Virus record (IMG/VR): IMGVR_UViG_3300023296_001674
DNA length: 64,000 bases
Strand: one strand, 5' to 3'
Source of the DNA: a virus
Made by a program: the position numbers and the translations under genes. This document shows positions 11,787 through 58,193 of the stretch, piece after piece. The stretch's first letter is position 1. Every line of letters starts with the position of its first letter. A model generated the notes under the pieces. The model saw only the letters and a program-made list of their open reading frames with translations, was not told the DNA's origin and did no database searches.

Positions 11787-11790
11787 CGAA

Positions 11791-22594: not shown

Positions 22595-22598
22595 CATA

Positions 22599-38535: not shown

Positions 38536-38564
38536 TTGACAAATATGCATTATTGACGTATATT
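38536..38564 (+). promoter_or_regulatory. sigma70-type promoter (TTGACA-N17-TATATT)
   Basis: TTGACA at 38536-38541 and TATATT at 38559-38564. A TTG (38553) or ATG (38571) start follows. Confidence 0.5.
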
Positions 38565-38570
38565 ATATCT

Positions 38571-39416
38571 ATGAAAAAATATTATGAAACATTAGAAGTC
38601 GAAAAAACAGCAACCGATGCCGAAATTAAAAAATCGTATCGCAAGTTGGCTATGAAATATCATCCTGATACAAATCCCGATGATGTAACAGCCGAAAATA
38701 ATTTCAAAGAAATAAATGAAGCATATGAGGTTTTATCCGACGAAACGAAAAAATCTAACTATGATACATTTGGCGATCCTGATGGTAGACCTACACCACA
38801 CACTAGCCAGCACGGTTTTGGTGGTGGTTTTCAATCAGCAACAGATTTTAATGATATTTTCAATGATATTATGAATGCACGAAGTGCACCAAAAAATGCT
38901 CATGCACAATCACAAATGACTATTACATTGGAAGAGGCGTATGTAGGATCATCAGTTGAGATAGAAATAACTAATCATAAAAATATATCATCAAAGCAAA
39001 ATATAAGAATTCCCGCTGGTATTAAACATGGTATGACGTTACGCCTTGCGGGTGCCGGTCATCATCACATTGAGGAGTTGCCACCCGGTGATTTATTGGT
39101 TAATATACAAATCACACCACATTCCATATTTACTGTGGTAGATTACAATTTAATCATGGAAGAAAAAATTAGCATGATCGAAGCCGTGTTTGGCAAGGAA
39201 ATAGAAGTTACTACATTGGCTGGAAAAACTTTGAAATTAGAAATTCCAAAAGGAACGCAACCAAATCATAAAATTCGATTAAAAGGTAAAGGAATGCCCG
39301 TATTAAACAGAAAAGATGTATTTGGTGATTTATATATAATTGTCAATGTTGAAATACCTACGAATATAACACAAAAACAACGAGATTTATTAAGTGAATT
39401 TAATGAAGTTTCTTGA
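38571..39416 (+). CDS. dnaJ: DnaJ/CbpA-like J-domain co-chaperone (no Cys-rich zinc-finger region)
   Basis: J domain YYETLEVEKTATDAEIKKSYRKLAMKYHPDTNPDD with HPD tripeptide. Gly-rich linker GFGGGFQ. DnaJ C-terminal beta-domains. Listed ORF begins at TTG 38553. Confidence 0.75.
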   Translation: MKKYYETLEVEKTATDAEIKKSYRKLAMKYHPDTNPDDVTAENNFKEINEAYEVLSDETKKSNYDTFGDPDGRPTPHTSQHGFGGGFQSATDFNDIFNDIMNARSAPKNAHAQSQMTITLEEAYVGSSVEIEITNHKNISSKQNIRIPAGIKHGMTLRLAGAGHHHIEELPPGDLLVNIQITPHSIFTVVDYNLIMEEKISMIEAVFGKEIEVTTLAGKTLKLEIPKGTQPNHKIRLKGKGMPVLNRKDVFGDLYIIVNVEIPTNITQKQRDLLSEFNEVS

Positions 39417-39473: not shown

Positions 39474-40004
39474 ATGATAGAAATTGTTTTAGAAGATGAT
39501 CCAGCATTAAAAATTGTTGTGCCACTATATGATTTTGACGAGCCGTTGAATATTGTAACTACACAAGATGAATTCGGTTTAACTGAATTCATTGATGCTA
39601 TGTTTGTGACCATGAAATTGAATAAAGGTCTCGGTTTGGCGGCTAATCAAATAGGACAAAACGTTCGCGTATTTGTTATGGATTTTTACGGCGAAGAATT
39701 TATTTGTATCAATCCAATAATTGAACAGTCATCAACAGAATTTACAATAGATCAAGAAGGCTGTTTAAGTTTTCCAGATTTATCATTAAATGTAAAACGA
39801 TCATCTGAAATATTTGTATCGTATTCAAATATCGATGGCGTTGAAATTCAAAGATGGTTATCTGGTATTACAGCTAGGTGTTTTCAACATGAACTAGATC
39901 ATTTGAATGGGATAACATTCGATTCACAAGTTGCAAAGCTAAGTTTAAAAATGGCTAAAGACAAAAGAAGAAAAAAAATAAAACAAAAACAAAGGAATAC
40001 CTAA
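39474..40004 (+). CDS. def: peptide deformylase
   Basis: Three PDF motifs: GLGLAANQIG (GxGxAAxQ), EGCLSFPD (EGCLS) and QHELDHLNG (HExxH). Confidence 0.8.
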   Translation: MIEIVLEDDPALKIVVPLYDFDEPLNIVTTQDEFGLTEFIDAMFVTMKLNKGLGLAANQIGQNVRVFVMDFYGEEFICINPIIEQSSTEFTIDQEGCLSFPDLSLNVKRSSEIFVSYSNIDGVEIQRWLSGITARCFQHELDHLNGITFDSQVAKLSLKMAKDKRRKKIKQKQRNT

Positions 40005-42263
40005 ATGCCTAACGGATTTGACCAACGACACATTTCTATAATGCTTCAAAAAGCAGTAACATTAGCAGAAAAATACGATCACATATATATAACATTAGAA
40101 CATATCAGTTTAGTATTACTGGATGATAAGTCCGTTGATCACGGTATTAAAGAATGCGGCGGCGACATAAAACTTATTAAAGAAATGGTTTTGACTGCAT
40201 TGTTAGATGAAGCAGATATAACTGAAGCAGGAACTGAGCCACAACCAACAAGAGCAGTCATCAATGTTATTCAACGGGCAATCCAGCATTCTGTTGGATC
40301 AGGCCGCAATACAGTTGAACCATTTTATCTTATGGCAAGTTTGTTAATGGAAAAAGATTCCGTTGCTGTATGGGCATTAGCACAACAAAATGTTGATCGT
40401 GTAAGTTTTATTAGAACTATAAATGTTCCACCATCAGGACAAAATAAAGGTGGCCCGATGAATGAACTCGATCCTATAACGGGTCAACCTATGCCACAAC
40501 CTGAAAATGCATTAAGAGATTATTGTGTTAATTTGAATGAAAAGGTAATTGCTGGTGATATTGATCCATTGATAGGTCGCGAAAAAGAAATTGAACGGTC
40601 ACTACAAGTTTTATCTAGACGACGCAAAAACAATCCATTGCTTGTTGGTGAGCCAGGAGTTGGTAAAACCGCTATTGCAGAAGGATTGGCATGGAAAATT
40701 GTTAATGAAACCGTGCCAAATTATATCAAAGATTCTATTGTATATTCGTTGGATATTGGTGCACTTATGGCTGGTGCCAAATTTCGCGGTGATGTCGAAG
40801 AACGATTAAAAGCGGTTCTTGCCGGATTGGAAGAAGTTGGCAAAACCAACAAAACCATATTATTCATTGATGAAATTCATACCATTATTGGTGCGGGTGC
40901 TACATCAGGTGGAAGTATGGATGTTAGTAACCTATTGAAACCCGCACTTGCTGCTGGTTCATTACGTTGCATGGGTTCCACCACATATGCTGAATATAAT
41001 AAGTATTTCGAAAAAGATGCGGCACTTAAGCGTCGTTTCAAAAAAATTGATATTATTGAACCTACTGTTGATGAAACAAAAACTATTATCAAAGGTTTGG
41101 CAAAATATTTTGCTGAGTATCATGAAGTTAAATTCACAAAAGAAGCATTAATGAGTGCAGTTGATTTATCCGTTAAGCATATACACGATAACAAACTTCC
41201 AGATAAAGCGATTGATGTTATTGATGAGGCGGCGGCAGCACAAAGATTATTCGATGGCGAAGATCGCCTTGAAATCATTGATGTTAAACAAATTGAAGAA
41301 ACCGTTGCAAAGATTGCAAGGATTTCTATTGATGCAACATCAAAAACCGACAAAGATAGATTGCGTAACCTTGCAGAAAATCTAACAACACATGTGTTTG
41401 GTCAAGAAGAAGCGATTGATGTTCTAACCAAGGCAGTTAAATTAAGCAAATCTGGATTGCGTGAAGAAAATAAACCGATTGGTAATTTCTTATTCAGTGG
41501 ACCTACAGGCGTAGGTAAAACCGAAGTTGCAAAACGTCTTGCCGATGAACTAGACGTTCCGTTGGTGCGATTTGATATGTCTGAATATATGCAAAAGCAC
41601 GAAGTGTCTAAACTTATTGGATCGCCACCTGGTTATGTTGGTCATGATGATAGTGATGGATTTTTAATTGAAGAAATTGATAAGCATAATTATTGTGTTT
41701 TATTGTTAGATGAAATCGAAAAAGCACACCAAGATATATTCAACGTTCTGTTACAAGTTATGGATAATGCAACACTAACCGGTGGTCGCAATAAAACAGT
41801 GCGCTTTGACAATGTTATAATCATCATGACATCAAATGCTGGTGCATCAGACCTTGCAAAAGAAGTTATGGGATTTGGCAACGAAGAGCGAGTTGGCGAT
41901 GATCTTATAGCCATCGAAAAATTATTTACACCTGAATTTAGAAATCGTTTGGATAAAATCGTTGGATTTAAACCATTACAACAAGAAATAATGAATAAAG
42001 TTGTTGTTAAATTTATAAAACAATTGAAAGTTCAACTTAAAACACAGGATGTTAAACTTACGTTGATGAAGAAAGCCATTGAGTGGCTTGCCGTTAAAGG
42101 ATACAGTTCCAAATATGGAGCACGACCACTTTCGCGTGTAATAGACAATCATATCAAGCAGCCAATATCTGAAGAGTTATTATTTGGTCAACTTGAAAAT
42201 GGTGGTTCAGTTAAAATTGACATCGTTGAAGACGAACTTGAATTCACTTACAAACCAAAATAA
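40005..42263 (+). CDS. clpA: ClpA-like double-ring AAA+ unfoldase (Clp N-domain, D1, D2; no ClpB middle domain)
   Basis: Collinear with E. coli ClpA: [44 protein letters not shown] (D1), [14 protein letters not shown]2 Walker [33 protein letters not shown] tripeptide sits at the IGL-loop position. Confidence 0.85.
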
Positions 42264-42277: not shown

Positions 42278-42463
42278 ATGACAGAAGTATTAAAATCATT
42301 ATATATACAAAGTGAAATATCGCGCATAACTAAACGCATTAAACAATATAATCAAATTTACCATTCGTTAGAAATAAAAGATTTGAATTTAAAACGATTG
42401 ATAACTAATAAACAACGAGAAATAGATATCTTAGATATGATATCAAGAGGAAACAATCAATGA
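42278..42463 (+). CDS. hypothetical small protein
   Basis: 61-aa ORF with ATGA overlap into the next gene. Confidence 0.3.
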   Translation: MTEVLKSLYIQSEISRITKRIKQYNQIYHSLEIKDLNLKRLITNKQREIDILDMISRGNNQ

Positions 42464-42783
42464 CTGAAATAGAAACAAGAGCTACATTATTCGCCGTAAA
42501 ATCTATGTTCCCAGCAGAACACATTGAAACAGCCAATCGATTAGAATGGTGTCAAGAAAACAACATGGAATTTTTTAATGTTAGCATTCGTGGCACCAAA
42601 GTGGGTGATGTATTTTATGACGAACAAGAAATGCAAGAAATTGGCGTTCTTGAATTGCTTGATGCAGATGGTGTCAAAAAAGGCGAGATAAACCTTGAAA
42701 CATTACCACCAATCAACATCGGTATGGGATTTGTGTTTCATGATGAAACAGATGCCGCAGCATTTAAGCTGCAATGGAACTAA
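42460..42783 (+). CDS. AFKLRW-family small protein
   Basis: LEWCQENNMEF motif and C-terminal DAAAFKLQWN-stop. Confidence 0.5.
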   Translation: MTEIETRATLFAVKSMFPAEHIETANRLEWCQENNMEFFNVSIRGTKVGDVFYDEQEMQEIGVLELLDADGVKKGEINLETLPPINIGMGFVFHDETDAAAFKLQWN

Positions 42784-42977
42784 TAAAAGTATCAGTTGGC
42801 AGTGATACAAATTTAGTTGATAATTCTATAATATGGTGCAAAGAAAATAATATAAACTTTGAAAAATATGAACCAATTCATAAATCTAATAAATTTGATC
42901 GTGATATAATCGTTGGTTTTATTTTTTATTTTTTAGCAGAAGAGGACGCGTTTGCATTTAAACTGCGATGGGTTTAA
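42774..42977 (+). CDS. AFKLRW-family small protein
   Basis: IIWCKENNINF motif and C-terminal EDAFAFKLRWV-stop. 10-nt overlap with the upstream paralogue. Confidence 0.5.
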   Translation: MELIKVSVGSDTNLVDNSIIWCKENNINFEKYEPIHKSNKFDRDIIVGFIFYFLAEEDAFAFKLRWV

Positions 42978-43043: not shown

Positions 43044-43823
43044 ATGAAATTTACATTTCTAGGTGCAGGTAGCGCATTTACGATGGAAAACTATCAATCT
43101 AATATGATAGTGACATCAGATTCTGGAAAAAATTTATTAATTGATTGCGGTGGCGATGTGCGCCATAGTATGAAAGCGGCAGGATTTGGCGTAGCCGATA
43201 TTGATGCGATATATGTCAGTCATCTACATTCAGATCACACTTCTGGAATCGAATGGTTGGCGTTTAATACATATTTTAATGATGCCTTAAAACAACCAAA
43301 AATGTTTATCAATGAAAAACTTTCACGTGAACTTTGGGAAAATACACTACAAGGTGGACTTGGAAGCATACAAGGAAAAATAACCACCCTTGATTCATAT
43401 TTTGAAGTTACTCGTGTTATAAAAAACAAATGTTTCATTTGGGAGGATATTGAATTTAGACTCGTTCAAGTGATTCATTATATGGATGGATTTGACATTG
43501 TTCCATCATATGGTTTGTTGTTTACAGTGAATGGATTGAGATATTTCTTAACTACTGATGCTCAACATGCTCCTTCGCAAATTCAAGATTTTTACAACAT
43601 GAGTGATGTTATCTTTCAAGATTGTGAAACTACCCCGTTTGCATCCGGTGTTCATGCGCACTATGAAGAACTTATAACACTTAATGAAGAAACAAAAGCC
43701 AAAATGATACTATATCATTATTCAGATGGCGACAAGAAAGATTGCACCAACGATGGATTTAGATGTTGGGCAACAAATCAAATGGAAATTGATTTAAATA
43801 CAGGAACGGTAATTAACGCATGA
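43044..43823 (+). CDS. metallo-beta-lactamase-fold hydrolase (RNase Z/ElaC-like candidate)
   Basis: HxHxDH motif in VSHLHSDHTSG plus downstream His/Asp ligands (HYMDG, DCETT, HYSDGD). Confidence 0.6.
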   Translation: MKFTFLGAGSAFTMENYQSNMIVTSDSGKNLLIDCGGDVRHSMKAAGFGVADIDAIYVSHLHSDHTSGIEWLAFNTYFNDALKQPKMFINEKLSRELWENTLQGGLGSIQGKITTLDSYFEVTRVIKNKCFIWEDIEFRLVQVIHYMDGFDIVPSYGLLFTVNGLRYFLTTDAQHAPSQIQDFYNMSDVIFQDCETTPFASGVHAHYEELITLNEETKAKMILYHYSDGDKKDCTNDGFRCWATNQMEIDLNTGTVINA

Positions 43824-44023
43824 CAAAAACGTGGTGGTTTTGGATAATGTTAGCATTGGGTATTATAATACAATATCCATTTGAATTATTCACTTATGGA
43901 ATGTTGCTAGAGTCAGGCGTGGCTGCATTTTTAGGACTCACATCTGGACTAAATATTTTAGAATATTATATGTGGGTTTTGGTGCTATATGCATATCATA
44001 TGGACAAATTATATATTAAATAA
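43820..44023 (+). CDS. small membrane protein
   Basis: 67 aa, two hydrophobic helices (WWFWIMLALGIIIQ and GVAAFLGLTSGLNIL). ATGA overlap. Confidence 0.35.
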   Translation: MTKTWWFWIMLALGIIIQYPFELFTYGMLLESGVAAFLGLTSGLNILEYYMWVLVLYAYHMDKLYIK

Positions 44024-44055
44024 TATAGACAATCTAACACAAAAATGGTATTATA

Positions 44056-44364
44056 ATGGCAGAACTAAGTGAAGATGAAGAATTAAAACAACTATTAGAC
44101 GACGATGATTTAAGAGATTATTTCAACGGACGCGACCCTAATAGAAAAAAATCAGACCCTTTTATATCTGAAGAGACCGCGAACCGTCATAGAGGAAAAT
44201 CCACTGTTTTAACGACAAAGGATGTTCCAGAAGAAAAACAAGAAACACACGGAATATCTTTTACACAACACGTTAAAAGCATTAAAGAAACAGCTAGGCA
44301 ATACATGTGGATAGGCATATCTGTTGGATTATTCTTAGCAATTATCATAACCTTAATATTATAG
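44056..44364 (+). CDS. tail-anchored small protein (C-terminal TM helix)
   Basis: C-terminal WIGISVGLFLAIIITLIL. Acidic N-terminus. Confidence 0.4.
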   Translation: MAELSEDEELKQLLDDDDLRDYFNGRDPNRKKSDPFISEETANRHRGKSTVLTTKDVPEEKQETHGISFTQHVKSIKETARQYMWIGISVGLFLAIIITLIL

Positions 44365-44373
44365 AGGAAAAAT

Positions 44374-44745
44374 ATGCAATCTATCGATACATTTATGGCC
44401 GATTGGTCATCTAGACAAGATGCACCGGCACATACTTCCCGTGCTAAAATTTATGAACATTTATTAGTTGAGCTAACAAAGAGCGCACGCGACAATAAAA
44501 CGGTTCGTATTAACCACATTAAATCAACATATAACAGAAGTGGCGATTTAAGAACTTTCTTGAAATGGATTACTGGCGAAGCTGATCAAAAATCATTTTC
44601 GTTAACTATGGCAGTTCAACCATCTGGTCGTCATTTTGAAGATGCCCCCAACAAAGATAAGTTGAAAACTGTCGCAGAAAAGTATGGATTTAGGGTCAAA
44701 TTTGAATATCCTGATAATCAAGGGTATGAGATGGAACGAAACTAG
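44374..44745 (+). CDS. hypothetical protein
   Basis: 123 aa, SD GAGGAAAAATATG. Confidence 0.4.
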   Translation: MQSIDTFMADWSSRQDAPAHTSRAKIYEHLLVELTKSARDNKTVRINHIKSTYNRSGDLRTFLKWITGEADQKSFSLTMAVQPSGRHFEDAPNKDKLKTVAEKYGFRVKFEYPDNQGYEMERN

Positions 44746-44769
44746 GATTCCGAACGTATGTTAACAAAA

Positions 44770-44806
44770 AAGGCTACAACGATAAATATTGGTGTAGCCT
44801 TTTTTA
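44770..44806 (+). terminator. rho-independent terminator (9-bp stem AAGGCTACA/TGTAGCCTT, 14-nt loop, T6 tail)
   Basis: Inverted repeat 44770-44778 / 44793-44801 followed by TTTTTT. Begins 25 nt after the stop of gene 44374-44745. Confidence 0.65.
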
Positions 44807-44972
44807 TGGGAAATTATTGATACATGGAAGACAAAAAAGATTTATGGTGGGTGCTTTACGAATATGGATTATATGATGCTATTAAAATTATATATCCCCC
44901 ACCTTGGAATTTTACATATATATCAAAAAACTAGCATATAAGGTTATTAAACTGATAATATAACTAATACGG

Positions 44973-45221
44973 GTGGAAAAAACTATGAAAAACATTAGAC
45001 CTGCTACCGATTATAAAATATCTTGTCAAATTACTGAATACTTTGCGGAATATAACGAAATAAGCAAATGTGTTGAAATGCTATCAGAAAAAATAGATAA
45101 TACATCATTATCACCAAAAGAAATGGATATGATTCATCAAGAATTGGATGAAAACATGGGAAAACTGGAGGAAGTATCTGGCATCCTTGCAGATTTGGGT
45201 TATATACGATTATATGATTAA
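44973..45221 (+). CDS. hypothetical small protein
   Basis: 82 aa with SD GGTGGAAAAAACTATG. Preceded by a 227-nt non-coding stretch. Confidence 0.35.
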   Translation: MEKTMKNIRPATDYKISCQITEYFAEYNEISKCVEMLSEKIDNTSLSPKEMDMIHQELDENMGKLEEVSGILADLGYIRLYD

Positions 45222-45275
45222 ATAATGACTATTTACTAAATTTATGCTACAATAATAAAAAATAAGGAAGCATTA

Positions 45276-46064
45276 ATGAAGCAATTTACGAATAATATAT
45301 ACTTAGGCGATACTCTCGATATGATGAAACAGATTGATGACGAATCTATTGATCTGATTATCACCGATCCACCATACGGAATGGCTTATCACGGCAATAG
45401 ACGCAATGAAAAGGCTGATGCATGGGGAAATGTCGATAAAAAATTTGATCATATCGAAAATGATAGCGGCGAAGAGTTTGAAGCGTTATTGTTGAGTTAT
45501 ATCACGGAATGCCTACGTATAATGAAACCAGATACTGCAATGTATATGTTTTGTAGTTGGCACAAAGTTGGTTTCTTTCAAGCAGAACTTGAAAAGCATT
45601 TCACATTAAAGAATTTATTGGTGTGGAACAAAAATAATCATACAGTTGGTGATTTGTACGGCAGTTATGCACCAAAGCACGAACTTGTGTGGTTCTGCCA
45701 TAAAGGTCGCGTGACTATGCAAGATACCAAAAGACACACCGATGTATTAGATCACGATGATGAAACTATATTGAATGATATGGTTATAATGGATCATAAA
45801 AAAATACATGATCCAGTTCATCCAACAATGAAACCGATTGATATGTTACGAAAGTTTGTTAGAACATCAAGCAAAGAGAATGATTTGATATTTGATGGAT
45901 TTATGGGTAGCGGCTCAACTGCGGTTGCAGCAGCAAAAGAAGGTAGACAGTTTATGGGTGCAGAACTATCACCTGAATATCATAAAATAGCATCAGATAA
46001 AGCAAATGCAGCCATACAGGATAAGGAAGCAGAAGATGCTAGTAAAAGTTACCTTGAATGGTAA
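45276..46064 (+). CDS. beta-class DNA methyltransferase (N6-adenine or N4-cytosine), intact
   Basis: Motif IV DLIITDPPYG near the N-terminus. C-terminal HPTMKP...IFDGFMGSGSTAVAA (motif I FxGxG): circularly permuted beta-class order. Confidence 0.75.
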   Translation: MKQFTNNIYLGDTLDMMKQIDDESIDLIITDPPYGMAYHGNRRNEKADAWGNVDKKFDHIENDSGEEFEALLLSYITECLRIMKPDTAMYMFCSWHKVGFFQAELEKHFTLKNLLVWNKNNHTVGDLYGSYAPKHELVWFCHKGRVTMQDTKRHTDVLDHDDETILNDMVIMDHKKIHDPVHPTMKPIDMLRKFVRTSSKENDLIFDGFMGSGSTAVAAAKEGRQFMGAELSPEYHKIASDKANAAIQDKEAEDASKSYLEW

Positions 46065-46066
46065 AT

Positions 46067-46291
46067 TTAGCCCCAGCGTAGCTTAAAAGCCATCGCTGAT
46101 TCAAGATTAAAAAATAAAACACCAGTGGAACACATGCATGCACCACTGGTGTATCCATCTAAAATAAAATCTTCTTTTACTTTTAGATTTTCAAATAACC
46201 AATTATCTATAAATTTTTCAGATATCACTGTATCATATTCAAAATATAAATCACTTGTTCTTCTTATTTTATAAAATTCTTCTACAGCCAT
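46067..46291 (-). CDS. AFKLRW-family small protein
   Basis: DNWLFENLKV motif and C-terminal ESAMAFKLRWG-stop. First of five tandem minus-strand paralogues. Confidence 0.5.
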   Translation of the reverse strand: MAVEEFYKIRRTSDLYFEYDTVISEKFIDNWLFENLKVKEDFILDGYTSGACMCSTGVLFFNLESAMAFKLRWG

Positions 46292-46488
46292 CTCATTTTG
46301 AATCCCATTGAATCTTCTTCATCTAACAACCAGACCACCGATGATGGTGGTTTTCGGACATCGGCAGAATCACATATGGCATAACTGTCTTCATCGATAT
46401 TGTCGATCAGCCATAGTTTAACTTCATCCATTTCGTTGTTGGAAATATAGAATTTTGTGTTGTTTATTTGACGTATTTTCATATCCAT
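46282..46488 (-). CDS. AFKLRW-family small protein
   Basis: [10 protein letters not shown] motif and C-terminal [11 protein letters not shown]-stop. 10-nt overlap with neighbours. Confidence 0.5.
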
Positions 46489-46847
46489 CGTAATTTAAAT
46501 GCAACCACGTCGCTTTCATTATTGAATACAAATTTATACGTTAAATTATTTCGTTTGTCTTCAGTATAAGACCGGACGTAATATTCTTCAACGTTTTCTT
46601 TGAGCCACTCATTCATGTTATTTACCGTGACTTCATCATAGTTTTGCAACAACGCATAATATGATTGCTGTTCAACAATTTCAAATGATGGCTCCAATGA
46701 TTTAGACTGAACTGTGTGTATCGTTTCACTGCATATATCAACGCATTCATTGCAAATATATACATCTACACTAGCAATTAAATGTTTTACTTGCGATTGA
46801 TCTTTTTTACAAAATGAACATGTAGGTACTTTATTTTTTATAGCCAT
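46479..46847 (-). CDS. AFKLRW-family small protein with N-terminal CxxC zinc-ribbon extension
   Basis: [10 protein letters not shown] motif and C-terminal [11 protein letters not shown]-stop. N-terminal CSFCKK...CNECVDIC. Confidence 0.5.
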
Positions 46848-47188
46848 TTTAATTTAAACGCTGTAACGTCTTCCTTGCATGTAAAGGTGAATTCAACGGT
46901 ATTAGTGCCGTTGATCGAATAATTGGTTTTGTTTTCAAATATGTATACTATATCATTATCCACGCACCAATCATCTATTAAATCAACGCCGTCTGCAATC
47001 ATGGCTGAATATACGTCATACGTTACAATAAATTTATACTTAAAAAATTTTTCTACTTGAGAATGAAAGCCAACTATATCATTTAATAACGTAATATTTG
47101 TTGGATTGTTTATTTTTTTAGTATCGACATCAAAATCTTGTAATATTTCAAATAATACTGCTTTGCGTAATGTATCTATATCATTCAT
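46838..47188 (-). CDS. AFKLRW-family small protein
   Basis: [10 protein letters not shown] motif and C-terminal [11 protein letters not shown]-stop. Confidence 0.5.
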
Positions 47189-47207
47189 AATACTCGCCCA
47201 TTATTTA

Positions 47208-47555
47208 TTATATCCATCTTAATTTAAACGCCATCGCAGATTCTTTGTCATCATAAAACAACACTTCTATTTCTACCATTCCATTATCATCTTCGTCCCA
47301 ACCAGACCAATCCCAACGCCAATCACTAGTGCAATTTTCAAGCAACCAATCATGTTCTTCGTGATTGTTAAAATCCCATTCTTCACTAACTTTCGTTCCG
47401 TTTTTTTCACGACGTGGTGGATTTATTTTTGTCCCTGATATTTTAATATTAACTGTATTTTCGGATATGATCGATTTGTTATATGATGGCGTCGGTATAG
47501 ACGCTGTCGATACTTCTAATGTATATTTTCTACCACAATGAATATCGCCTTCCAT
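47208..47555 (-). CDS. AFKLRW-family small protein
   Basis: Listed ORF (to 47711) trimmed to internal ATG 47555 (MEGDIHCGRKY), which has SD AAGAGA and leaves room for the divergent promoter. HDWLLENCTSDW motif and C-terminal ESAMAFKLRWI-stop. Confidence 0.45.
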   Translation of the reverse strand: MEGDIHCGRKYTLEVSTASIPTPSYNKSIISENTVNIKISGTKINPPRREKNGTKVSEEWDFNNHEEHDWLLENCTSDWRWDWSGWDEDDNGMVEIEVLFYDDKESAMAFKLRWI

Positions 47556-47627
47556 GATTAATCTCTTTTTAATTGTTAATACTTTTTCAGTATAATACCA
47601 AATATATACTGATAATGTCAATATCTC

Positions 47628-47655
47628 TTGACATACATTAATGATGTGATATAGT
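47628..47655 (+). promoter_or_regulatory. sigma70-type promoter (TTGACA-N16-TATAGT)
   Basis: TTGACA at 47628-47633 and TATAGT at 47650-47655. SD AAAGGA; ATG at 47688. Confidence 0.45.
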
Positions 47656-47687: not shown

Positions 47688-48431
47688 ATGGCTTATGTTC
47701 GCGCAGTTCAAAACATTTTAGATATGGAAATTGAAGATTTATATTTTGAAAGTGATGGAAAATATCACAAAAAAGGCGAGTTGAGGCGATTGGGTGCACG
47801 CACAAAATACGTCAAATTAAAGATTTTATTTTATAGTGCACAAGACAACATGGATGACGAATTGGCATCACAAGCAGAAAAAGCAGCAGATGAAATTAAA
47901 AATCCTTGTTACGTCGGCGATGAACGTCGCGAGGAAATTTTAGCAAAAATATCACACATCACAGAAGAAGAACGTGCTCAAGGTAAAACGAAACATGCCA
48001 CATTTTCAGTGGAGGATCGCAACTGGCGCACAAAAGGTGTTCATGGTATATTTCATAATGAATCTAATTCTATTGTTATTTTCAAAGAGAAACATGGTGA
48101 TTCATTGTATGATATGAGTTCTGCATTTAATGCTGCTAGCGCGTTTCTTACTGTGCTACGCGAACGATTGAATGATGGTTGGTATAACGATCAACTCGAG
48201 GATGAAGATCATGAATCCAACCAATTGGATTTATTGAAATCCAATGAAATTATATTAACCGAAGAACAGGAAGCTAGAAAAATTGTCGACATGGCTACCA
48301 ACCGTAAAATAACAGGAGATTTTATTCGTGCTGGAAAAGATGCGTATGAATTCTTGCAAGATCGTAGCGAATATGAATATGGTTGTTTTTCTATTGAGAC
48401 GCCATCGGTTGCTGATTTTACATTGACATAA
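47688..48431 (+). CDS. hypothetical protein
   Basis: 247 aa, no motifs recognised. Confidence 0.45.
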   Translation: MAYVRAVQNILDMEIEDLYFESDGKYHKKGELRRLGARTKYVKLKILFYSAQDNMDDELASQAEKAADEIKNPCYVGDERREEILAKISHITEEERAQGKTKHATFSVEDRNWRTKGVHGIFHNESNSIVIFKEKHGDSLYDMSSAFNAASAFLTVLRERLNDGWYNDQLEDEDHESNQLDLLKSNEIILTEEQEARKIVDMATNRKITGDFIRAGKDAYEFLQDRSEYEYGCFSIETPSVADFTLT

Positions 48432-49371: not shown

Positions 49372-50673
49372 ATGACACATATATCGTTATATAATAGCAT
49401 GTCGAGAGAAAAAGAAAAATTCAAACCAATAGACGATTCTCGCGTAACTATGTATTATTGCGGTATCACCCCTTATGATAAACCACATCTTGGTAACGTA
49501 AGAGCGAGTATCACTGGTGATATGATATATAGACTGTTGCGGGTTTTTTATAAATCAGAAAATGTCATATATGCTAGAAATATTACTGACATAGATGATA
49601 AAATCGAAGCAAAAAGCCAAGAAACAGGAAGGTCTGCGATTGATATAACGAATGAAACTATTCAATGGTTTCATGAAACTATGAAAGTATTACATGTATT
49701 GCCACCGGATTTGGAGCCAAGGGTTTCTGATAATGAAGAATCTATGATGGATATGATTAACATATTACTTGATAAAAATATCGCATATAAATCAAATAAT
49801 GGTGACATTTATTTTGAATTAGATAAATTTCCAGAACACGGAAAATTATGCCGCCACAGTCGCGAAGATTTAAATATAAATGAAGAACATTCTTCAGAAA
49901 AAAAACATCCACAAGATTTTGTTTTATGGAAAGAAAATCATCAACGATTTGGTTGGCATATTGAATGTTCCGCGATGATTAAAAAGCATTTGGGTGACAC
50001 TATCGATATTCATGGTGGTGGTGGTGATTTACGTTTCCCACATCATGAGAATGAAATAGCTCAAAGTGAAACTGCTAATGGTGTCCCATTGGCTAATTAC
50101 TGGATGCATAACGGTATGATTACAGTGAACGGAAAGAAAATGGCTAAATCTACTGGAAGCTTTATTACAGTCGATGAAGCACTAGATCGTGTTCCCGGCG
50201 AAGCGATACGATTTTACATGCTTAAGACGCATTACCGTAAACCGTTTGATTGGTCGTGGGATGGTTTGATGGAAGCCAAGTCTGAACTTGATGGGTTATA
50301 TAGAAAGATGCAGAAACGCACTTATGTTAAAATGGGTGGCGTGTCAGTACAAGTATTATATGCGTTGGCTGATGATTTGAATACACCATTGGTGATATCA
50401 GAATTATACAAAGAAGCGGATAAGGAAATATCTTCTTTATTGGATTCGGCGCAGCTATTGGGTATACTGAATCATACACCAGAAGAATGGTTTCATGGCA
50501 CAACGAAAGATTCATTACTTGATGCATCGTCAATCGAGGCACTTATTGAAGTACGGAAACTATTGAAAGAAAATGGCGACTATGAATCTGCGGATATAAC
50601 AAGAGATATATTATTAGGACAAGGCATTATACTTGAAGATAAACCAGATGGGACAACTTGGCGAAAAATATGA
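49372..50673 (+). CDS. cysS: cysteinyl-tRNA synthetase
   Basis: Collinear with E. coli CysRS: YYCGITPYDKPHLGNVR (HIGH-type motif reads HLGN), NITDIDDKI, WHIECSAM, IHGGGGDLRFPHHENEIAQS, KMAKSTG (KMSKS), C-terminal ILEDKPDGTTWRK. Zn-ligand Cys/His positions are conserved. Confidence 0.85.
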   Translation: MTHISLYNSMSREKEKFKPIDDSRVTMYYCGITPYDKPHLGNVRASITGDMIYRLLRVFYKSENVIYARNITDIDDKIEAKSQETGRSAIDITNETIQWFHETMKVLHVLPPDLEPRVSDNEESMMDMINILLDKNIAYKSNNGDIYFELDKFPEHGKLCRHSREDLNINEEHSSEKKHPQDFVLWKENHQRFGWHIECSAMIKKHLGDTIDIHGGGGDLRFPHHENEIAQSETANGVPLANYWMHNGMITVNGKKMAKSTGSFITVDEALDRVPGEAIRFYMLKTHYRKPFDWSWDGLMEAKSELDGLYRKMQKRTYVKMGGVSVQVLYALADDLNTPLVISELYKEADKEISSLLDSAQLLGILNHTPEEWFHGTTKDSLLDASSIEALIEVRKLLKENGDYESADITRDILLGQGIILEDKPDGTTWRKI

Positions 50674-50921
50674 TTATAACACAACAAACTAATAGTCTAG
50701 ATGAGTGTAGATATGTATGTTTGGACGACAATCAAAATCTTACAGAATTAATGGATTTACTATATTGGCTGTCTGAAAATTGTTATAGAGTGCCAGGATT
50801 GGAATGGGTGTTTAGACGATTGGATCGATATAATCAAATAATTATCACATTTGGTTTTAATTCATTAAGTGATTGTTATAATGATGAATATCATATGGCA
50901 TTCAAGTTAAAATGGTTGTAG
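50658..50921 (+). CDS. AFKLRW-family small protein
   Basis: LYWLSENCYR motif and C-terminal YHMAFKLKWL-stop. Overlaps the cysS 3' end by 16 nt. Confidence 0.5.
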   Translation: MAKNMIITQQTNSLDECRYVCLDDNQNLTELMDLLYWLSENCYRVPGLEWVFRRLDRYNQIIITFGFNSLSDCYNDEYHMAFKLKWL

Positions 50922-51005: not shown

Positions 51006-52060
51006 ATGTTATATAATGACGATTGTTTAGTCGCAATGAAAAAATTAATTGAAGAAAATACACAAGTGGATTCTATTGTAACCGATCCGCCATATCATCT
51101 AACCAACACAAATGATGAAAATAAAGGTTTCATGGGTAAACAATGGGATGGTGGCGATATTGCGTTTAATGTTGAAACATGGAAACTCGCATACGATCTT
51201 TTAAAACATGGTGGTCATTTAATAGCGTTTAGTGCATCAAGAACATATCATCATATGGTGGTAGCCATTGAAAATGCGGGATTTGAAATACGTGATCAAC
51301 TTATGTGGCTTTATAGTTCAGGTTTTCCTAAAGGACATAATATATCTAAAGGATTAGAAAAAACCGGTGCAACACCTGTTGACATTGAAACATGGGAGGG
51401 ATGGAATACGGTGTTAAAGCCAGCACATGAACCAATAGTTTTAGCCAGAAAGCCATTAGAACCTGACTCGACTATTGCGCAAAACGTGTTGAAACATGAC
51501 ACAGGTGGTTTGAATATAGCCGACTGTAGCGTGGGCGATGAAAAAAGATTCAATCCAAGTGCAAGTAGCAATAAAATTTATGGTCAATTTGAAGGATCAG
51601 AAAAAGATGGTAGAGATTCTACAGGTAGATATCCAACAAACGTAATTCATGATGGATCAGATGATGTCAATGACGCTTTTCAAAAATATGCCCAATCGGG
51701 TGAAAATCCTATTCGTTTTTTTATGGGTCTAAAACATCTGAAACTGAACGCAATCATGGATCAGCAAATATTAAAAATACACACCCAACTGTTAAACCAC
51801 AAGATTTGATGCGTTATTTATGTCGTCTTATTACGCCTAAAAATGGAATAGTGTTTGATCCATTTATGGGTTCTGGATCAACCGGAATAGCTGCTAAAAC
51901 TGAGGGTTTTGATTTTATTGGCATTGAACGCGAATTAGAATATTTTGAAATATCTAAAAAACGAATAGAAACTGCATATCATGTTCCTAACAAAAAAGTA
52001 GTGTTGTCTACAGACAACAATGATTCTGTGCCAGACCTTGATGATATATTCAAAGAATAA
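51006..52060 (+). CDS. beta-class DNA methyltransferase interrupted by a frameshift at a T7 run (51716-51722); two ORFs 51006-51809 and 51806-52060
   Basis: ORF1 carries IVTDPPYHL (motif IV). Frame +2 downstream encodes THPTVKPQDLMRYLCRLITP...VFDPFMGSGSTG (HPTxKP + FxGxG). A -1 slip on U_UUU_UUU, or one extra T, fuses them into a ~351-aa MTase. Confidence 0.65.
51716..51722 (+). promoter_or_regulatory. slippery homopolymer U7 (X_XXY_YYZ-type heptamer) at the methyltransferase frameshift point
   Basis: TTTTTTT in the zero frame as cgT TTT TTT atg. A -1 shift here enters the frame encoding the MTase C-terminal motifs. Confidence 0.4.
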
Positions 52061-52080: not shown

Positions 52081-52329
52081 ATGTGTAATCCATATATAAA
52101 AATATTTGAATATATCATGGATACACAATATTCAGAGATATATAAATGGTTGCGCAATCACGGCGAAGATGGTATAGATTGGTGCATAGAAGACTACAAT
52201 CAACAATATGTAATCAATGGTATGGATAATAACGTGAGTGTGGAATGTGATATGGTTGTAAAAATATATAATATTGATGTAGCGGCAGTTTTTGAAATGG
52301 AGCAAGTTGGTGGGCATAATGGAAAATAA
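52081..52329 (+). CDS. hypothetical small protein, possible degenerate AFKLRW-family member
   Basis: YKWLRNHGEDGIDWCIEDY (W..N/WC.E-like) and C-terminal DVAAVFEMEQVGGHNGK, which lacks the K-L-R-W end. Confidence 0.3.
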   Translation: MCNPYIKIFEYIMDTQYSEIYKWLRNHGEDGIDWCIEDYNQQYVINGMDNNVSVECDMVVKIYNIDVAAVFEMEQVGGHNGK

Positions 52330-52540
52330 AAATAGACATATATCAGAAACAGGGCGTCATATTCTTGAAACACATCCATATGTAGTTGAGAATATTGATG
52401 ACAGCGATTGTTTTGTTGATATCATATATTGGACACGGGCGGTGTTTGGTGGTAAGGAAGAACGGGTAATAACATGTTGGAATAATTATTATTTTAGACA
52501 TGAAGTCGATTGTTTTAATTTTAAAATGAGGTGGTTGTAA
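52292..52540 (+). CDS. AFKLRW-family small protein
   Basis: C-terminal VDCFNFKMRWL-stop. Overlaps the dephospho-CoA-kinase-like gene start. Confidence 0.45.
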   Translation: MKWSKLVGIMENKNRHISETGRHILETHPYVVENIDDSDCFVDIIYWTRAVFGGKEERVITCWNNYYFRHEVDCFNFKMRWL

Positions 52541-53133
52541 TGATTATAGGATTGACTGGTGGAATGGCATGTGGTAAATCGACATGTTCTAATATGATTA
52601 AGAAAATGGGAATTCAAGTGTTTGATGCTGATGCAGAAGCACACAAGTTGCTTGAGAGAGATGTGCGTGTTATTCGTGATATACAAGATCAACTACCACA
52701 GGCGGTGGACACAATTGATAGTAAAGAATTTATTAGTCGTGATAAATTATCGAAATTAATGCTAAATGATGATTCAGTTATTGAAATAGTCACTGAAGCA
52801 ATAACTATTCCATTAAAATATGCTTTACTCCGATTTATTGAACGCAATCGAGATAATAGATTCGCCGTTGTGGATGCGCCGATGTTATTTGAGTATAAGT
52901 GGGATACATATTGTGAAAAAATAATCACAGTTGATGCACCGAGAGATCGACAAGAATTGCGAATAATGAAAAGACATGGTATGACTGAATTAAAAATGAT
53001 GATATTACTTGATTTGCAGATGACATCAGAAGAACGAAATTTAAAATCAGATTATGTCATAGATAATGGATCGAGTTTATATAATACCAATGAACAAATA
53101 GTAAATATATTCTTGACATTGCAGCAAATATAA
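52531..53133 (+). CDS. coaE: dephospho-CoA kinase (CoaE)-like P-loop kinase
   Basis: N-terminal MIIGLTGGMACGKST matches the CoaE signature IGLTGGIGSGKST. Length (200 aa) and downstream DAD/DAP segments fit. Confidence 0.65.
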   Translation: MVVMIIGLTGGMACGKSTCSNMIKKMGIQVFDADAEAHKLLERDVRVIRDIQDQLPQAVDTIDSKEFISRDKLSKLMLNDDSVIEIVTEAITIPLKYALLRFIERNRDNRFAVVDAPMLFEYKWDTYCEKIITVDAPRDRQELRIMKRHGMTELKMMILLDLQMTSEERNLKSDYVIDNGSSLYNTNEQIVNIFLTLQQI

Positions 53134-53333: not shown

Positions 53334-53936
53334 ATGCAGTTTCCATTCATCAAATCAAATGTAACATTGGGGCTATTCATGAAAAATGAATATGTCAAAG
53401 TGAAATCACGATATACCAAATTATATGAACTTGCGAGACATTATTGGTTTGAATTGGTTTGTTTATCTATTTTAATGATGGTTATTATATCAAGTATGGA
53501 TAAAACATATACGCCAGTGGTTATAACACCAGTAGGTGTGGAAACAACATCAAACACTATCGCCGTTCAACCATCAAATACATACATTGATTTAAATTCA
53601 ATTGTGCGATATAAATCGACGATGATGGACAATGAAACTGTTGGTGATATAGAACGGCACGATCTTATTAATGCGCATGAAAACAAGTTTGTTGGTCAAC
53701 GTATAATTCACACTGGCAAACTTGATATAATAGATACAAAATATGATCATTATGCATTATATATATCAACCGCCAGTATATATGATGACGCGAAGTGTAA
53801 AATTGATATAGATGATAAAAAAATAATATATACACTACGCGAGGACGCAATTGTAACTATAAAAGGGTCAATTGAAGAAATCACGTTCAATTATAATATT
53901 GCAGATTGCGTTGTTGTGATGCCTGATGAAAAATAA
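53334..53936 (+). CDS. membrane protein (single TM)
   Basis: Listed ORF 53292-53936 trimmed to ATG 53334, after the basic ORF stop. TM segment HYWFELVCLSILMMVIISS. Confidence 0.4.
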   Translation: MQFPFIKSNVTLGLFMKNEYVKVKSRYTKLYELARHYWFELVCLSILMMVIISSMDKTYTPVVITPVGVETTSNTIAVQPSNTYIDLNSIVRYKSTMMDNETVGDIERHDLINAHENKFVGQRIIHTGKLDIIDTKYDHYALYISTASIYDDAKCKIDIDDKKIIYTLREDAIVTIKGSIEEITFNYNIADCVVVMPDEK

Positions 53937-54190
53937 TGAGTGATGAAAAATCTATATTTCATGACGTTGAAGAATCCAACACCGACGTGGGAATTGAGTA
54001 TACACTTTGGGGAAGTTATGATATAATCATCGAAGTTATGAATTGGCTACATGAACATTATCCATCGACGTGGGGAATTGAATGGACTGTCGATCATCAT
54101 AATAGACACGACGCGATAAACGTTGTATTCAATTTAAAAGAATGCAATACTGATGCAGCACTTATGGGGTTTAAATTGAGATGGTTGTAA
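53936..54190 (+). CDS. AFKLRW-family small protein
   Basis: MNWLHEHYPSTWGIEW motif and C-terminal AALMGFKLRWL-stop. ATGA overlap upstream. Confidence 0.5.
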   Translation: MSDEKSIFHDVEESNTDVGIEYTLWGSYDIIIEVMNWLHEHYPSTWGIEWTVDHHNRHDAINVVFNLKECNTDAALMGFKLRWL

Positions 54191-54570
54191 AAAATTTTAT
54201 AGCATTGCCACACGATCCGTATTTTTCTAATGTAGTAATAACTAATAGAGAGCCGGATAAAATGAGAGTGTATATACAACATAAAGGAGCAACGCCGTAT
54301 AATAATCAATCACATACAACATTATCTATATTGGCTACATCTGTTTATGTAATAGAATTAAACACCATGCCAATAGCAAAATATGTTTTTATAATGTTGT
54401 ATCATTCAGATGTCATATTGATAAAAAATTTTGTTAAACAAAACAACCTTGCTTGTTCGTTTTCAACGGGAAAAATTATAAAGGATCGAAATAATAATAA
54501 AAAGACTGGTTATCTATGTTCTACTAATGATGAAACCGCCGCAATGGCTATTAAAATGATGTGGAGTTGA
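54181..54570 (+). CDS. AFKLRW-family small protein (divergent end ...AMAIKMMWS)
   Basis: C-terminal ETAAMAIKMMWS-stop. 10-nt overlap with the upstream paralogue. Confidence 0.45.
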   Translation: MVVKNFIALPHDPYFSNVVITNREPDKMRVYIQHKGATPYNNQSHTTLSILATSVYVIELNTMPIAKYVFIMLYHSDVILIKNFVKQNNLACSFSTGKIIKDRNNNKKTGYLCSTNDETAAMAIKMMWS

Positions 54571-54573: not shown

Positions 54574-54849
54574 ATGAAAATTAACTGCGTGGAAAAAATG
54601 GATCATAAACCGGCATATGAAACTGTTGATGTTTGTAATGACGGAATACAGGTACATATAATAAAACAGTGCCCGGCAAAATATACATGTTTGTTTCCTA
54701 CTAGAAATGAGGCAATTATTTTTATTCGTGAATTGAAAAAAATACCAAGTATTGATTATCAACAGTATCATTTGGGTGATAGAAATCTATTGGAAGTTAA
54801 TATTCATTCGAAAGACGCATTATTTTTGTTTTCATTGAGATGGTTATAA
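54574..54849 (+). CDS. AFKLRW-related small protein, SLRW subfamily
   Basis: C-terminal KDALFLFSLRWL-stop. First of three tandem SLRW-type paralogues. Confidence 0.45.
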   Translation: MKINCVEKMDHKPAYETVDVCNDGIQVHIIKQCPAKYTCLFPTRNEAIIFIRELKKIPSIDYQQYHLGDRNLLEVNIHSKDALFLFSLRWL

Positions 54850-54850
54850 T

Positions 54851-55129
54851 ATGTCAATACATATAGAATGCGTAAATCGAATGATTGAACGACCTGTATT
54901 CGTAGACATCGAAACTGTTGGTGGTAGAGGTGTTATAATACAAGACCAGCATGATTCGATACCAGCAGAATTTAATATATTTTCAGATACGAATAAAGAG
55001 TTGCATAAAATAATGAATGAAATATCACGTATGCATGGTGTAACAATTACAGATACTCGTGATCTCTGGGCAACTATTAATGTTAATACAAAAGAATCAT
55101 TGCTTTTGTTTTCATTGAGGTGGCGGTAA
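54851..55129 (+). CDS. AFKLRW-related small protein, SLRW subfamily
   Basis: C-terminal KESLLLFSLRWR-stop. Shares VPAEF(N/I) and HxxxxxxVxT with its neighbours. Confidence 0.45.
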   Translation: MSIHIECVNRMIERPVFVDIETVGGRGVIIQDQHDSIPAEFNIFSDTNKELHKIMNEISRMHGVTITDTRDLWATINVNTKESLLLFSLRWR

Positions 55130-55130
55130 T

Positions 55131-55412
55131 ATGACGGAATTGTATATACATCAAACTGTGCGGATGCACCATAAGCCATCATTTGAACAATACAACACCT
55201 TGGGTGGTGGTGGTTACATCAATTATACGAATGAGTTTGTACCAGCAGAATTTATTTGCAACGCAGATGATTCTGCAACATTACTTGCGTTTATAGACGA
55301 GTTGAGAATATTACCCGGTCTTCAAGTTGACAGAGAGCATCATCAATCTGAGATTACCGTTAAAATTCATTCAAAAGAAACATTATTAATATTTTGGTTG
55401 AGGTGGATGTGA
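55131..55412 (+). CDS. AFKLRW-related small protein, SLRW subfamily
   Basis: C-terminal KETLLIFWLRWM-stop. FVPAEFICN matches the previous paralogue. Confidence 0.45.
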   Translation: MTELYIHQTVRMHHKPSFEQYNTLGGGGYINYTNEFVPAEFICNADDSATLLAFIDELRILPGLQVDREHHQSEITVKIHSKETLLIFWLRWM

Positions 55413-55570
55413 TGTTATATAGATTTAAAGATATGGACGTTAAGCCGGATGAAAACATAAAAGAATGGTGCAATGAAAATTTAACAGACGGTGAAGTAGA
55501 ATTTGGTGCTACTACCATTTACATACAATCGGAGATAGATGCAATGGCGTTTGAATTAAGATGGATTTAA
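55412..55570 (+). CDS. AFKLRW-family mini-protein (52 aa); missed by the 60-aa cutoff
   Basis: MLYRFKDMDVKPDENIKEWCNENLTDGEVEFGATTIYIQSEIDAMAFELRWI-stop contains both the WCNEN and AMAFxLRWI signatures. TGATG overlap with the upstream gene. Confidence 0.45.
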   Translation: MLYRFKDMDVKPDENIKEWCNENLTDGEVEFGATTIYIQSEIDAMAFELRWI

Positions 55571-56330: not shown

Positions 56331-56425
56331 ATAAAGTAGTGGGACAGCCCAACTTCCTTGGCGGGTTTTAGTTGTTGAAACCAACTAATTACCACTATAT
56401 CTATTTATTTTTTGGAGTTAAAATC

Positions 56426-57643: not shown

Positions 57644-57836
57644 ACGTGTTTTTGATAAAATGAAACTCCCATATCCATGTTACGTTAATTATGGCGTTGA
57701 CCCAGATATGGTAATCGAATGGTGTGATGAGAATATCGAGTGTAAATGGGGGTATTTTCATCAAAATAACGGAACTCTTTATATATACATTACAGATGAT
57801 GTATATGGAATTGCATATAAGTTAAAATGGTCTTGA
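57633..57836 (+). CDS. AFKLRW-family small protein
   Basis: IEWCDENIECKW motif and C-terminal YGIAYKLKWS-stop. Overlaps the thrS 3' end. Confidence 0.45.
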   Translation: MKGERVFDKMKLPYPCYVNYGVDPDMVIEWCDENIECKWGYFHQNNGTLYIYITDDVYGIAYKLKWS

Positions 57837-57887: not shown

Positions 57888-58193
57888 ATGGGCATGTTTG
57901 ATTGGGTTAAAAGTGAATATTCGCTGCCACAAATGCAACCACCAACCGATGAGTTTCAAACCAAAGACGCTTTCTGCAATCTTGATGTATACACATTAGA
58001 TAAAGATGGCATACTGTGGGTTGAATATCAAGATTGGAGCATGAATGATCTTGGTGATAAAAAACTATCACATTTTGATGGCGAAATGTATTTCTATGGG
58101 TCTACCAAAGCTACAGGGCGCATGCAAGAATACTTAGCAGTATTCATTGATGGGACACTTGAAACAGTAGAGAAAGTTAATTATGGGCCGTAA
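57888..58193 (+). CDS. hypothetical protein
   Basis: 101 aa, SD GGAGAAG. Confidence 0.4.
   Translation: MGMFDWVKSEYSLPQMQPPTDEFQTKDAFCNLDVYTLDKDGILWVEYQDWSMNDLGDKKLSHFDGEMYFYGSTKATGRMQEYLAVFIDGTLETVEKVNYGP

Follow-up and report, generated by a model that had tools for sequence, protein, structure and literature searches.

A five-gene array from a family of small proteins with an AFKLRW-type C-terminal tail in a jumbo phage contig

Five short genes lie head to tail on the minus strand between positions 46067 and 47555 of the DNA analysed here, a stretch of 64,000 nucleotides (nt) from the IMG/VR virus record IMGVR_UViG_3300023296_001674 (hereafter, the window) that belongs to a contig of 570,750 bp. 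Each encoded protein ends in (A/G)FK(L/M)(R/K)W followed by one further residue and the stop codon, and all five belong to a family with at least 17 members in the window. This AFKLRW-tail family seems not to have been recorded before in the databases and literature searched, while expanded families of small proteins are already known in jumbo phages. To judge from the orthologous loci compared here, the five genes are ancient paralogues and their array is a fragment, now inverted, of a longer ancestral array that has been broken up. The best explanation as a whole, to which we give a probability of about one half, is that the array would be an early operon of an ancient family whose members have diversified as binders of other proteins. 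We are highly confident that the genes are real and in our account of the family and its size, the predicted fold, the anatomy of the operon, the orthology and the inversion, whereas the proposed function, early-expressed protein-binding modules built on one constant scaffold, is put forward tentatively.

The five open reading frames (ORFs) reported by a first-pass annotation of the window were all found where it had placed them. Array gene 1 (47208-47555; 115 amino acids (aa) from its ATG; isoelectric point (pI) 4.65) and array gene 2 (46838-47188; 116 aa) join unique N-terminal parts of about 55 and 60 aa, respectively, to the family domain and end in AMAFKLRWI and VTAFKLKWL. Array gene 3 (46479-46847; 122 aa; tail VVAFKLRWI) carries a ClpX-type C4 zinc finger at aa 9-44 ahead of the family domain at aa 68-122, array gene 4 (46282-46488; 68 aa; tail SMGFKMRWL) is a minimal family member, and array gene 5 (46067-46291; 74 aa; tail AMAFKLRWG) is the last of the series. 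Three junctions are overlaps of exactly 10 nt, as had been annotated; the 20-nt spacing also given corresponds to a gap of 19 nt at the one remaining junction. In the overlaps, the downstream ATG consists of the last base of the Arg or Lys codon and the TG of the Trp codon ('A TGG nnn TRR'), the start of array gene 4 thus falling within the R-W codons of array gene 3. A six-frame translation of the window contains [FY]K[LM][RK]W-x-stop 10 times, whereas 200 shuffles predict 0.01 occurrences.

The evidence that these ORFs are coding, as the annotation assumed, comes from the tail codons, whole-domain matches, a confidently predicted fold and orthologues in other phages. The codons of the tail hexapeptide vary synonymously at every degenerate position (Ala 4, Phe 2, Lys 2, Leu 5 and Arg 5 codons), and selection therefore acts on the protein. 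A relaxed motif scan and an iterated family hidden Markov model (HMM), built from two alignments (A1 and A2), recovered the 17 window members, a lower bound, with HMM E values of 1e-9 to 1e-20. When the 380 window ORFs were searched, all five array genes matched the HMM over the whole domain of about 55 residues (E 7e-14 to 2e-17), and both the helix-1 motif 'W-x-x-[ED]-N' and the last helix [AG]-F-K-[LM]-[RK]-W with its penultimate Trp were present in every one of the five proteins.

The domain is confidently predicted to fold as beta-alpha-beta-beta-alpha. The AlphaFold2 model of array gene 4, computed with 41 aligned sequences, has a mean predicted local distance difference test score (pLDDT) of 85.2 and a predicted template modelling score (pTM) of 0.67, and places a strand at residues 11-16, a helix at 20-30, a short turn, strands at 36-40 and 49-54 and a final helix at 57-67. 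The family signature comprises 'W-x-x-E-N' in helix 1, an aromatic strand 'F-x-F' and a last helix 'EEDAMAFKLRW', with the stop one residue after the Trp. Conserved columns include alternating strand residues, W26 (100%), E29, N30 (94%) and F54. In the last helix, D59, A60, M61, A62, F63, K64, L65, R66 and W67 are 72-99% conserved and the final six positions at least 93% among the top hits, figures that in part reflect ascertainment, the hits having been chosen by the same motif. Of 179 family proteins, 162 have Trp as their last residue but one. The parts that vary in sequence and length, and whose columns are sparsely occupied, are the N-terminus and the beta2-beta3 loop. This loop extends from a few residues to about 40, and the member at 42460-42783 has about 40 extra residues there. 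Among the metagenomic relatives, two copies of the domain occur in one polypeptide in eight proteins (P0003, P0049, P0051, P0054, P0090, P0105, P0116 and P0122), and both halves of P0003 are predicted to adopt the same fold (AlphaFold2 pLDDT 77). Two further proteins, P0061 and P0147, have two N-terminal hydrophobic segments which, judged by eye, are apparently transmembrane.

Beyond the window the family is large. An exhaustive profile search of 1.84 billion representatives (clusters at 50% identity) returned 2,494 sequences at E ≤ 1e-3, nearly all of 55-100 aa, and a word-limited search of 5.8 billion clusters at 90% identity gave 1,563 matches; among the 120 of these that were listed none carried a Pfam domain, and the only name from any source was 'hypothetical protein'. 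Scans of the five array genes and 41 family members against Pfam, PHROGs and NCBIfam gave no match for the AFKLRW-tail domain itself, and a sequence-profile search of the PDB with the family was empty. Full-text literature searches for AFKLRW, FKLRW and MAFKLRW returned chance matches only, and a literature search on multigene families of jumbo phages yielded nothing relevant to this family. Among the first 120 matches listed for a MAFKLRW DNA pattern in bacterial and archaeal genomes, all were chance occurrences and none contained the domain; the heptapeptide lay in 36 ORFs and was terminal in just one. The family has so far been seen only in phage contigs, which in IMG/VR span 34% to 58% GC and include a 194-kb contig with both a T4-type Gp23 capsid gene and a 10-gene family array. 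The cultured Sinorhizobium phage Phosso, the sole match obtained with family members in tblastn, carries the family as unannotated 'hypothetical proteins', five consecutive and three between its topoisomerase subunit genes, about half of these ORFs matching weakly (E 0.02-0.7).

The array has the organisation of a single transcription unit. Its first gene had been assigned an internal start at ATG 47555, and this start is supported because an independent gene call also yields 115 aa, because promoter-like sites would otherwise fall inside the ORF and because the conserved domain begins well downstream of it. A sigma70-like promoter on the minus strand at 47621-47592 (TTGACA, an 18-nt spacer and a TG-extended TATTAT; 11/12 match) lies 36 nt upstream of this ATG. 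Back to back with it in the 132-nt spacer upstream of the array is a TG-extended plus-strand site at 47628-47655 (TTGACA, 16-nt spacer, TATAGT; 11/12), the putative promoter of the plus-strand gene at 47688-48431, so the divergent promoter pair is as described in the annotation and its plus-strand member stands outside coding sequence. The window contains 21 sites of this strength (at least 11/12), where shuffled sequence gave 3.7 ± 1.8. With few exceptions they lie between genes and on the plus strand, several come straight after family members, and the array promoter is the sole intergenic minus-strand site among them. For the T4 late-promoter motif TATAAATA, the window has fewer copies than expected (6 against 15.9), and the window scan found none near the array. 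The sigma70-like promoter and the depletion of the late motif fit early transcription by the host polymerase, and the array is probably transcribed early in infection as one unit.

None of the three overlapped starts is preceded by its own Shine-Dalgarno sequence. In translational coupling, terminating ribosomes can re-initiate on the next gene, and on this general knowledge re-initiation is a plausible route across the array junctions, in keeping with the annotation's description of a translationally coupled array; the genes are tightly packed behind a single strong sigma70-like promoter. In a survey of 63 non-redundant family members across the window and the loci of other phages, the 10-nt overlap was the commonest junction (14), followed by overlaps of 4 nt (8) and 1 nt (4). 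For 16 of the 63 there was no downstream ORF within 40 nt and the tail was nevertheless kept, so that coupling alone cannot account for the strict register of the motif with the C-terminus. At junctions in L003, L006 and L011, which are loci of other phages, the R-W pair is very often encoded by AGG TGG, a sequence that contains a Shine-Dalgarno-like AGGTG and is followed by ATA TGA or by ATA TAA TG, placing an ATG at the stop. The protein tail thus often seems to double as a start signal or ribosome-binding cassette for the next gene, and a secondary role of the tail in translational coupling is plausible.

At its far end the array meets a DNA methyltransferase gene on the plus strand (45276-46064; PF01555, E = 5.3e-38), in which 'IITDPPYG' (motif IV) lies near the N-terminus and 'FDGFMGSGST' (motif I) near the C-terminus, the order of the beta class of N6/N4 enzymes. 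The annotation was right in calling it a beta-class enzyme. Its description of the array as downstream of this gene holds for position only, since the methyltransferase is on the opposite strand and convergent with the array, its stop codon being 2 nt from that of array gene 5.

The age of the copies and the history of the locus were read from other phages. By topoisomerase subunit, the closest cultured relatives are two jumbo phages, Phosso, at 54% identity, and Agrobacterium phage Atu_ph07, at 49%. Both belong to the T4-related 'group 2.2' as a survey of jumbo phages uses that term (PMC7824862), and the phage of the window, which also has DnaJ and ClpA-like genes, falls in the same sphere as Atu_ph07. 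No close relative of the locus was present among 50,697 phage records, in which the methyltransferase alone was matched. Among the contigs compared, L001 is identical to the window, L002 differs from L003 (256,814 bp) by one single-nucleotide polymorphism in 20 kb, and L003 and L032 provided the informative comparisons.

The array proteins are just 26-37% identical and resemble one another no more closely than they do other copies in the window, whereas counterparts in L003 and L032 reach 34-61% identity against 26-37% for the best matches within the window. Syntenic best-hit counterparts exist for four of the five array genes in L032 (34-50%) and for two in L003. The duplications are therefore old. 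The annotation had read the array as the signature of recent serial tandem duplication and as a place to watch neofunctionalisation, and neither proposal fits these values. It had also treated the five genes as the array; they are a real array but a subset of the window members, which form several. Variation in copy number between syntenic regions, also proposed there, was borne out, L003 and L032 both differing from the window.

In L003 a contiguous same-strand family array directly follows the genes for DnaJ, peptide deformylase and a ClpA-like protein, and includes counterparts of two window genes beginning at 42460 (63%) and 42774 (60%), of the zinc-finger array gene 3 (61%) and of array gene 4 (40%). 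The order in L032 is deformylase, ClpA-like gene, QueF, ten small genes and a convergent methyltransferase. The small genes include, in order, counterparts of 42460 (56%), 42774 (53%) and array gene 2 (34%; a gene of 118 aa), a possible counterpart of array gene 1 (42% over 48 aa), a copy with no equivalent in the window, and then counterparts of the zinc-finger gene (50%), array gene 4 (39%) and array gene 5 (48%). The L032 methyltransferase is 75% identical to that of the window, and beyond it lie opposite-strand counterparts of the genes at 44973, 44374 and 44056. Since L032 has the same junction of array and methyltransferase with the array co-directional with the ClpA-like gene, the convergent junction is taken as ancestral and the block in the window as inverted. 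On the orthology map this block measures about 4.6 kb (43044-47621; about 43.0-47.65 kb) and contains an Apyc1-like metallo-beta-lactamase-fold gene, three small ORFs, the methyltransferase and the array. The inversion separated the array from two plus-strand members at 42460-42977 (107 and 67 aa, overlapping by 10 nt), which stayed directly after the ClpA/B-like gene. Between the window and L032, family members have diverged faster (34-56% identity) than the flanking enzymes (63-75%).

A repeat search of the region revealed no inverted repeat where the breakpoints of the inversion lie. The longest ones that it contains are formed by family tails, 42945-42971 with 46485-46511 (27 nt, 85% complementary) and 42729-42778 with 46484-46533 (50 nt, 70% complementary), and it is possible that tails on opposite strands serve as recombination substrates between copies.

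The other window members are all on the plus strand. Three in tandem (11284-12039) lie between the genes for the two subunits of topoisomerase II, the GyrA-like 9893-11284 and the GyrB-like 12302-14182; Phosso has the same arrangement (L030, 27672-28527). Seven members are placed between 50.6 and 60.5 kb, several of them overlapping the 3' end of a larger gene. The first (50670-50921) overlaps the stop of a cysteinyl-tRNA synthetase (CysRS)-like gene (49372-50673), and a member of 67 aa (57633-57836), 55% identical to its counterpart in L003, overlaps the end of a class II aminoacyl-tRNA synthetase gene (56372-57643; tRNA-synt_2b with an HGTP anticodon domain). The remainder, found by HMM, are a protein of 73 aa (52319-52540; P0004), two of 84 and 129 aa with a 10-nt overlap (53936-54570), one of 58 aa (55394-55570; 69% identical to its L003 counterpart) and a basic one of 91 aa (60170-60445; pI 9.2). 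Fifteen of the 17 window copies have a pI of 4.0-6.4, the five array genes falling between 4.3 and 5.0, and the two basic members are those at 54181-54570 and 60170-60445. Three further tandem ORFs of 91-93 aa (54574-55412) end in LRW[LRM] and are 25-29% identical to one another. They were not counted as members, the hhalign probability being 30% over 21 columns, and may be either a divergent sub-family or unrelated.

Array gene 3 combines the family domain with a zinc finger of known type. It matches PF06689 (E = 1.9e-15; 56.9 bits against a cutoff of 27), and its CSFC...CNEC motif aligns to the zinc-binding domain of Escherichia coli ClpX (1OVX/2DS5; E = 1.3e-9), which by sequence identifies it as a genuine ClpX N-domain. 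The protein is not a ClpX unfoldase, since it has no AAA+ module and the C-terminal part of its 122 aa is the family domain. Fusions of this zinc finger to the family domain occur in at least five sequences (P0002, P0010, P0011, P0179 and the L032 copy; 50-64% identity), and array gene 3 can thus be linked to the Clp network. The window also contains a proteostasis cluster, with genes for DnaJ (38553-39416), peptide deformylase (39474-40004) and a ClpA/ClpB-like unfoldase of 752 aa with a double AAA+ module (40005-42263). Their order is the same in L003; L032 has the deformylase and ClpA-like genes, the position of DnaJ not being resolved there.

The interpretation that we favour is that family members are diversified binders on a common scaffold. 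The array promoter and its 36-nt leader would drive the five packed genes as one operon, probably early, and ribosomes ending on one gene would re-initiate on the next at the ATG inside the R/K-W codons. Each paralogue would be kept for its own host or phage target, picked by the variable N-terminal extension, the beta2-beta3 loop or a fused module, and the zinc finger of array gene 3 would connect that member to the Clp proteostasis network. This reading draws on the constant core with a variable N-terminus and loop, the acidity of the proteins, the probable early expression, the accessory context, the fast divergence and the fusions. Neighbours in the accessory regions include the Apyc1-like gene, DNA methyltransferases, QueF (in L032) and homing endonucleases. 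Protein binders are favoured over nucleic-acid binders because 15 of the 17 window copies are acidic and the domain has no GXXG loop. Several observations weigh on the other side. In the window and in the distant Phosso alike, some copies occupy the place between the topoisomerase subunit genes, and such conserved core-gene positions fit housekeeping partners better than arms-race binders; the near-invariant last helix and penultimate Trp hint at a shared partner or signal over pure scaffolding; and the AlphaFold2 model of the two-domain fusion P0003 shows no confident packing between its domains (pTM 0.50).

An unlikely alternative, though the one that survives best, is that the family comprises Clp adaptors or decoys. 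The invariant ...KLRW(I/L/V)-COOH end, comparable to the XB tail of SspB, would dock on a ClpX-type zinc-binding domain, with a variable body that delivers cargo to ClpXP or blocks it, and the zinc-finger gene would serve its co-expressed siblings as hub or anti-adaptor. In its broader form, the constant last helix and C-terminus (AFKLRW-x) would plug all members into one machine, a ClpX-type zinc-binding domain or another Clp unfoldase being the best candidate, as a battery of adaptors whose variable parts choose host proteins for degradation, protection or relocalisation. The genuine ClpX zinc-binding domain of array gene 3 and its recurrent fusion would suit this proposal, as would the placement of the ancestral array directly behind a ClpA/B-like unfoldase gene, close to those for DnaJ and deformylase, in the window and in L003 and L032, the strict register to the C-terminus and a last helix conserved on all its faces. 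Phosso and Atu_ph07 also encode their own ClpX, the zinc finger having been read in the Phosso copy only. SspB-type ClpX adaptors are likewise small proteins with a basic or hydrophobic C-terminal end, and the L-R-hydrophobic-hydrophobic order of the family tail presumably resembles the XB motif (LRVVK in SspB). The members do not qualify as SspB-type adaptors, however, since AlphaFold2 predicts that the tail forms part of an amphipathic helix of the folded domain, packs against the sheet and lacks any flexible linker, and no homology to SspB was detected. XB peptides, moreover, function irrespective of their position in the polypeptide (PMC12373786), so a strict C-terminal register is not what this alternative predicts, and arrays in other phages stand without Clp neighbours, that of L006 following a Gp23 capsid gene and a homing endonuclease.

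We consider it improbable that each member is instead dedicated to the larger gene that it follows (for a topoisomerase subunit, the ClpA-like protein, an aminoacyl-tRNA synthetase or the methyltransferase), as an accessory subunit or assembly factor of that one partner, rather than a host-directed binder. The start of many copies falls inside a larger gene or immediately behind its stop (CysRS/50670, aminoacyl-tRNA synthetase/57633, topoisomerase A/11284), the two genes for topoisomerase II subunits are separated by three copies both in the window and in Phosso, and several copies keep syntenic counterparts. These larger neighbours are functionally unrelated to one another, however, and arrays of 8-10 copies occur without a matching number of large partner genes. 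In the topoisomerase region of Atu_ph07 no family member was found and the subunit genes are adjacent, and the inversion moved the array away from the ClpA-like gene while its five ORFs remained intact.

That the domain is a KH-like module, and the proteins small RNA- or DNA-binding regulators of phage genes, is more doubtful still. The predicted order beta-alpha-(short alpha)-beta-beta-alpha and the variable loop between the last two strands may mirror the KH fold, and the last helix has a conserved Lys and Arg. The GXXG loop is absent, the equivalent position being the acidic/amide pair 'E-N' within the consensus W-x-x-E-N-(I/L), no Pfam KH match was obtained at E ≤ 1 for the five array genes or the 41 family members, and most members are strongly acidic. 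The resemblance to two-layer alpha/beta sandwiches of the type I KH, ACT or PII-like kinds is at most one of predicted topology, with no sequence similarity in the PDB profile and Pfam searches.

Recent serial tandem duplication, with the five genes now neofunctionalising in this genome, would agree with their head-to-tail order, the common tail and junction architecture and the differing copy number between relatives, but is very improbable and largely refuted by the low identity of the paralogues, which are not each other's nearest relatives, by the syntenic counterparts in L032 and L003 and by the recurrence of the 10-nt overlap in unrelated phages (14 of 63 junctions). The idea that the conserved tail is a DNA or RNA signal (a ribosome-binding and start cassette or a recombination site) with incidental ORFs, which could cite the R-W codons that supply the next ATG in 14 of 63 junctions, the AGG TGG found in many others and the 27-nt complementary tails, is refuted as a sole explanation by the synonymous variation of the tail codons, by conservation over the whole 55-residue domain with its confident fold and by the 16 members that keep the tail with no downstream ORF nearby.

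Several other genes of the window were characterised. The metallo-beta-lactamase-fold gene within the inverted block (43044-43823) matches the profile of anti-Pycsar Apyc1 proteins (PF23023; 93 bits, cutoff 50) and is likely anti-defence cargo; L003 lacks a counterpart, and the sequence of L032 stops short of the place where one would lie. Two homing-endonuclease-like genes (55573-56295 and 14165-15295) are on the minus strand of an otherwise plus-strand genome and both adjoin family members; one has GIY-YIG and NUMOD3 domains and the other weak DUF723 and zinc-ribbon-like matches. The accessory genes found between family members (51006-51809, 52531-53133, 58183-59337, 61024-61761 and 8122-8874) comprise a second N6/N4 methyltransferase, recognised by a partial match, a dephospho-CoA kinase, a PcfJ-like gene, a histidine phosphatase and PhoH. 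An Rfam scan of the window returned two tRNAs, tRNA-Leu(taa) and tRNA-Arg(tct) at 22518-22676, and nothing else.

The hyperplastic regions of T4-type phages hold short, packed and often overlapping early ORFs between core genes, with sigma70-like promoters and near homing endonucleases. The AFKLRW genes are likewise short, packed and often overlapping, lie among core genes and beside homing endonucleases and have sigma70-like promoters but, unlike these early ORFs, all have one common domain, and a search of the first 50 kb of T4 revealed no member of the family. For Bacillus phage G, the survey by Iyer et al. (2021, PMC7824862) describes a zinc-ribbon family of about 35 copies as a lineage-specific expansion in jumbo phages; a search of that survey for targeted terms did not turn up the AFKLRW family. 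In both cases one small domain has multiplied in one giant genome, often in tandem. The AFKLRW domain, however, is predicted to be an alpha/beta sandwich and not a zinc ribbon, and its family extends across many lineages of 34-58% GC with old syntenic copies and no recent burst.

The family is present in a cultured phage, Phosso, and its role is therefore open to experiment. Huge phages carry hundreds of genes without an assigned function, and here at least 2,494 sequence clusters, together with at least 17 genes within 64 kb, can now be recognised as one domain family outside the public libraries searched, with a clear signature, a confidently predicted fold, conserved gene positions and a natural fusion to a ClpX zinc finger of known biochemistry. 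If the members are a scaffold for binding host proteins, or Clp adaptors, this would explain a sizeable slice of the 'dark matter' of jumbo phages, and new small protein inhibitors may be found among them; if they are a battery of adaptors, huge phages would possess a programmable system for retargeting proteolysis.

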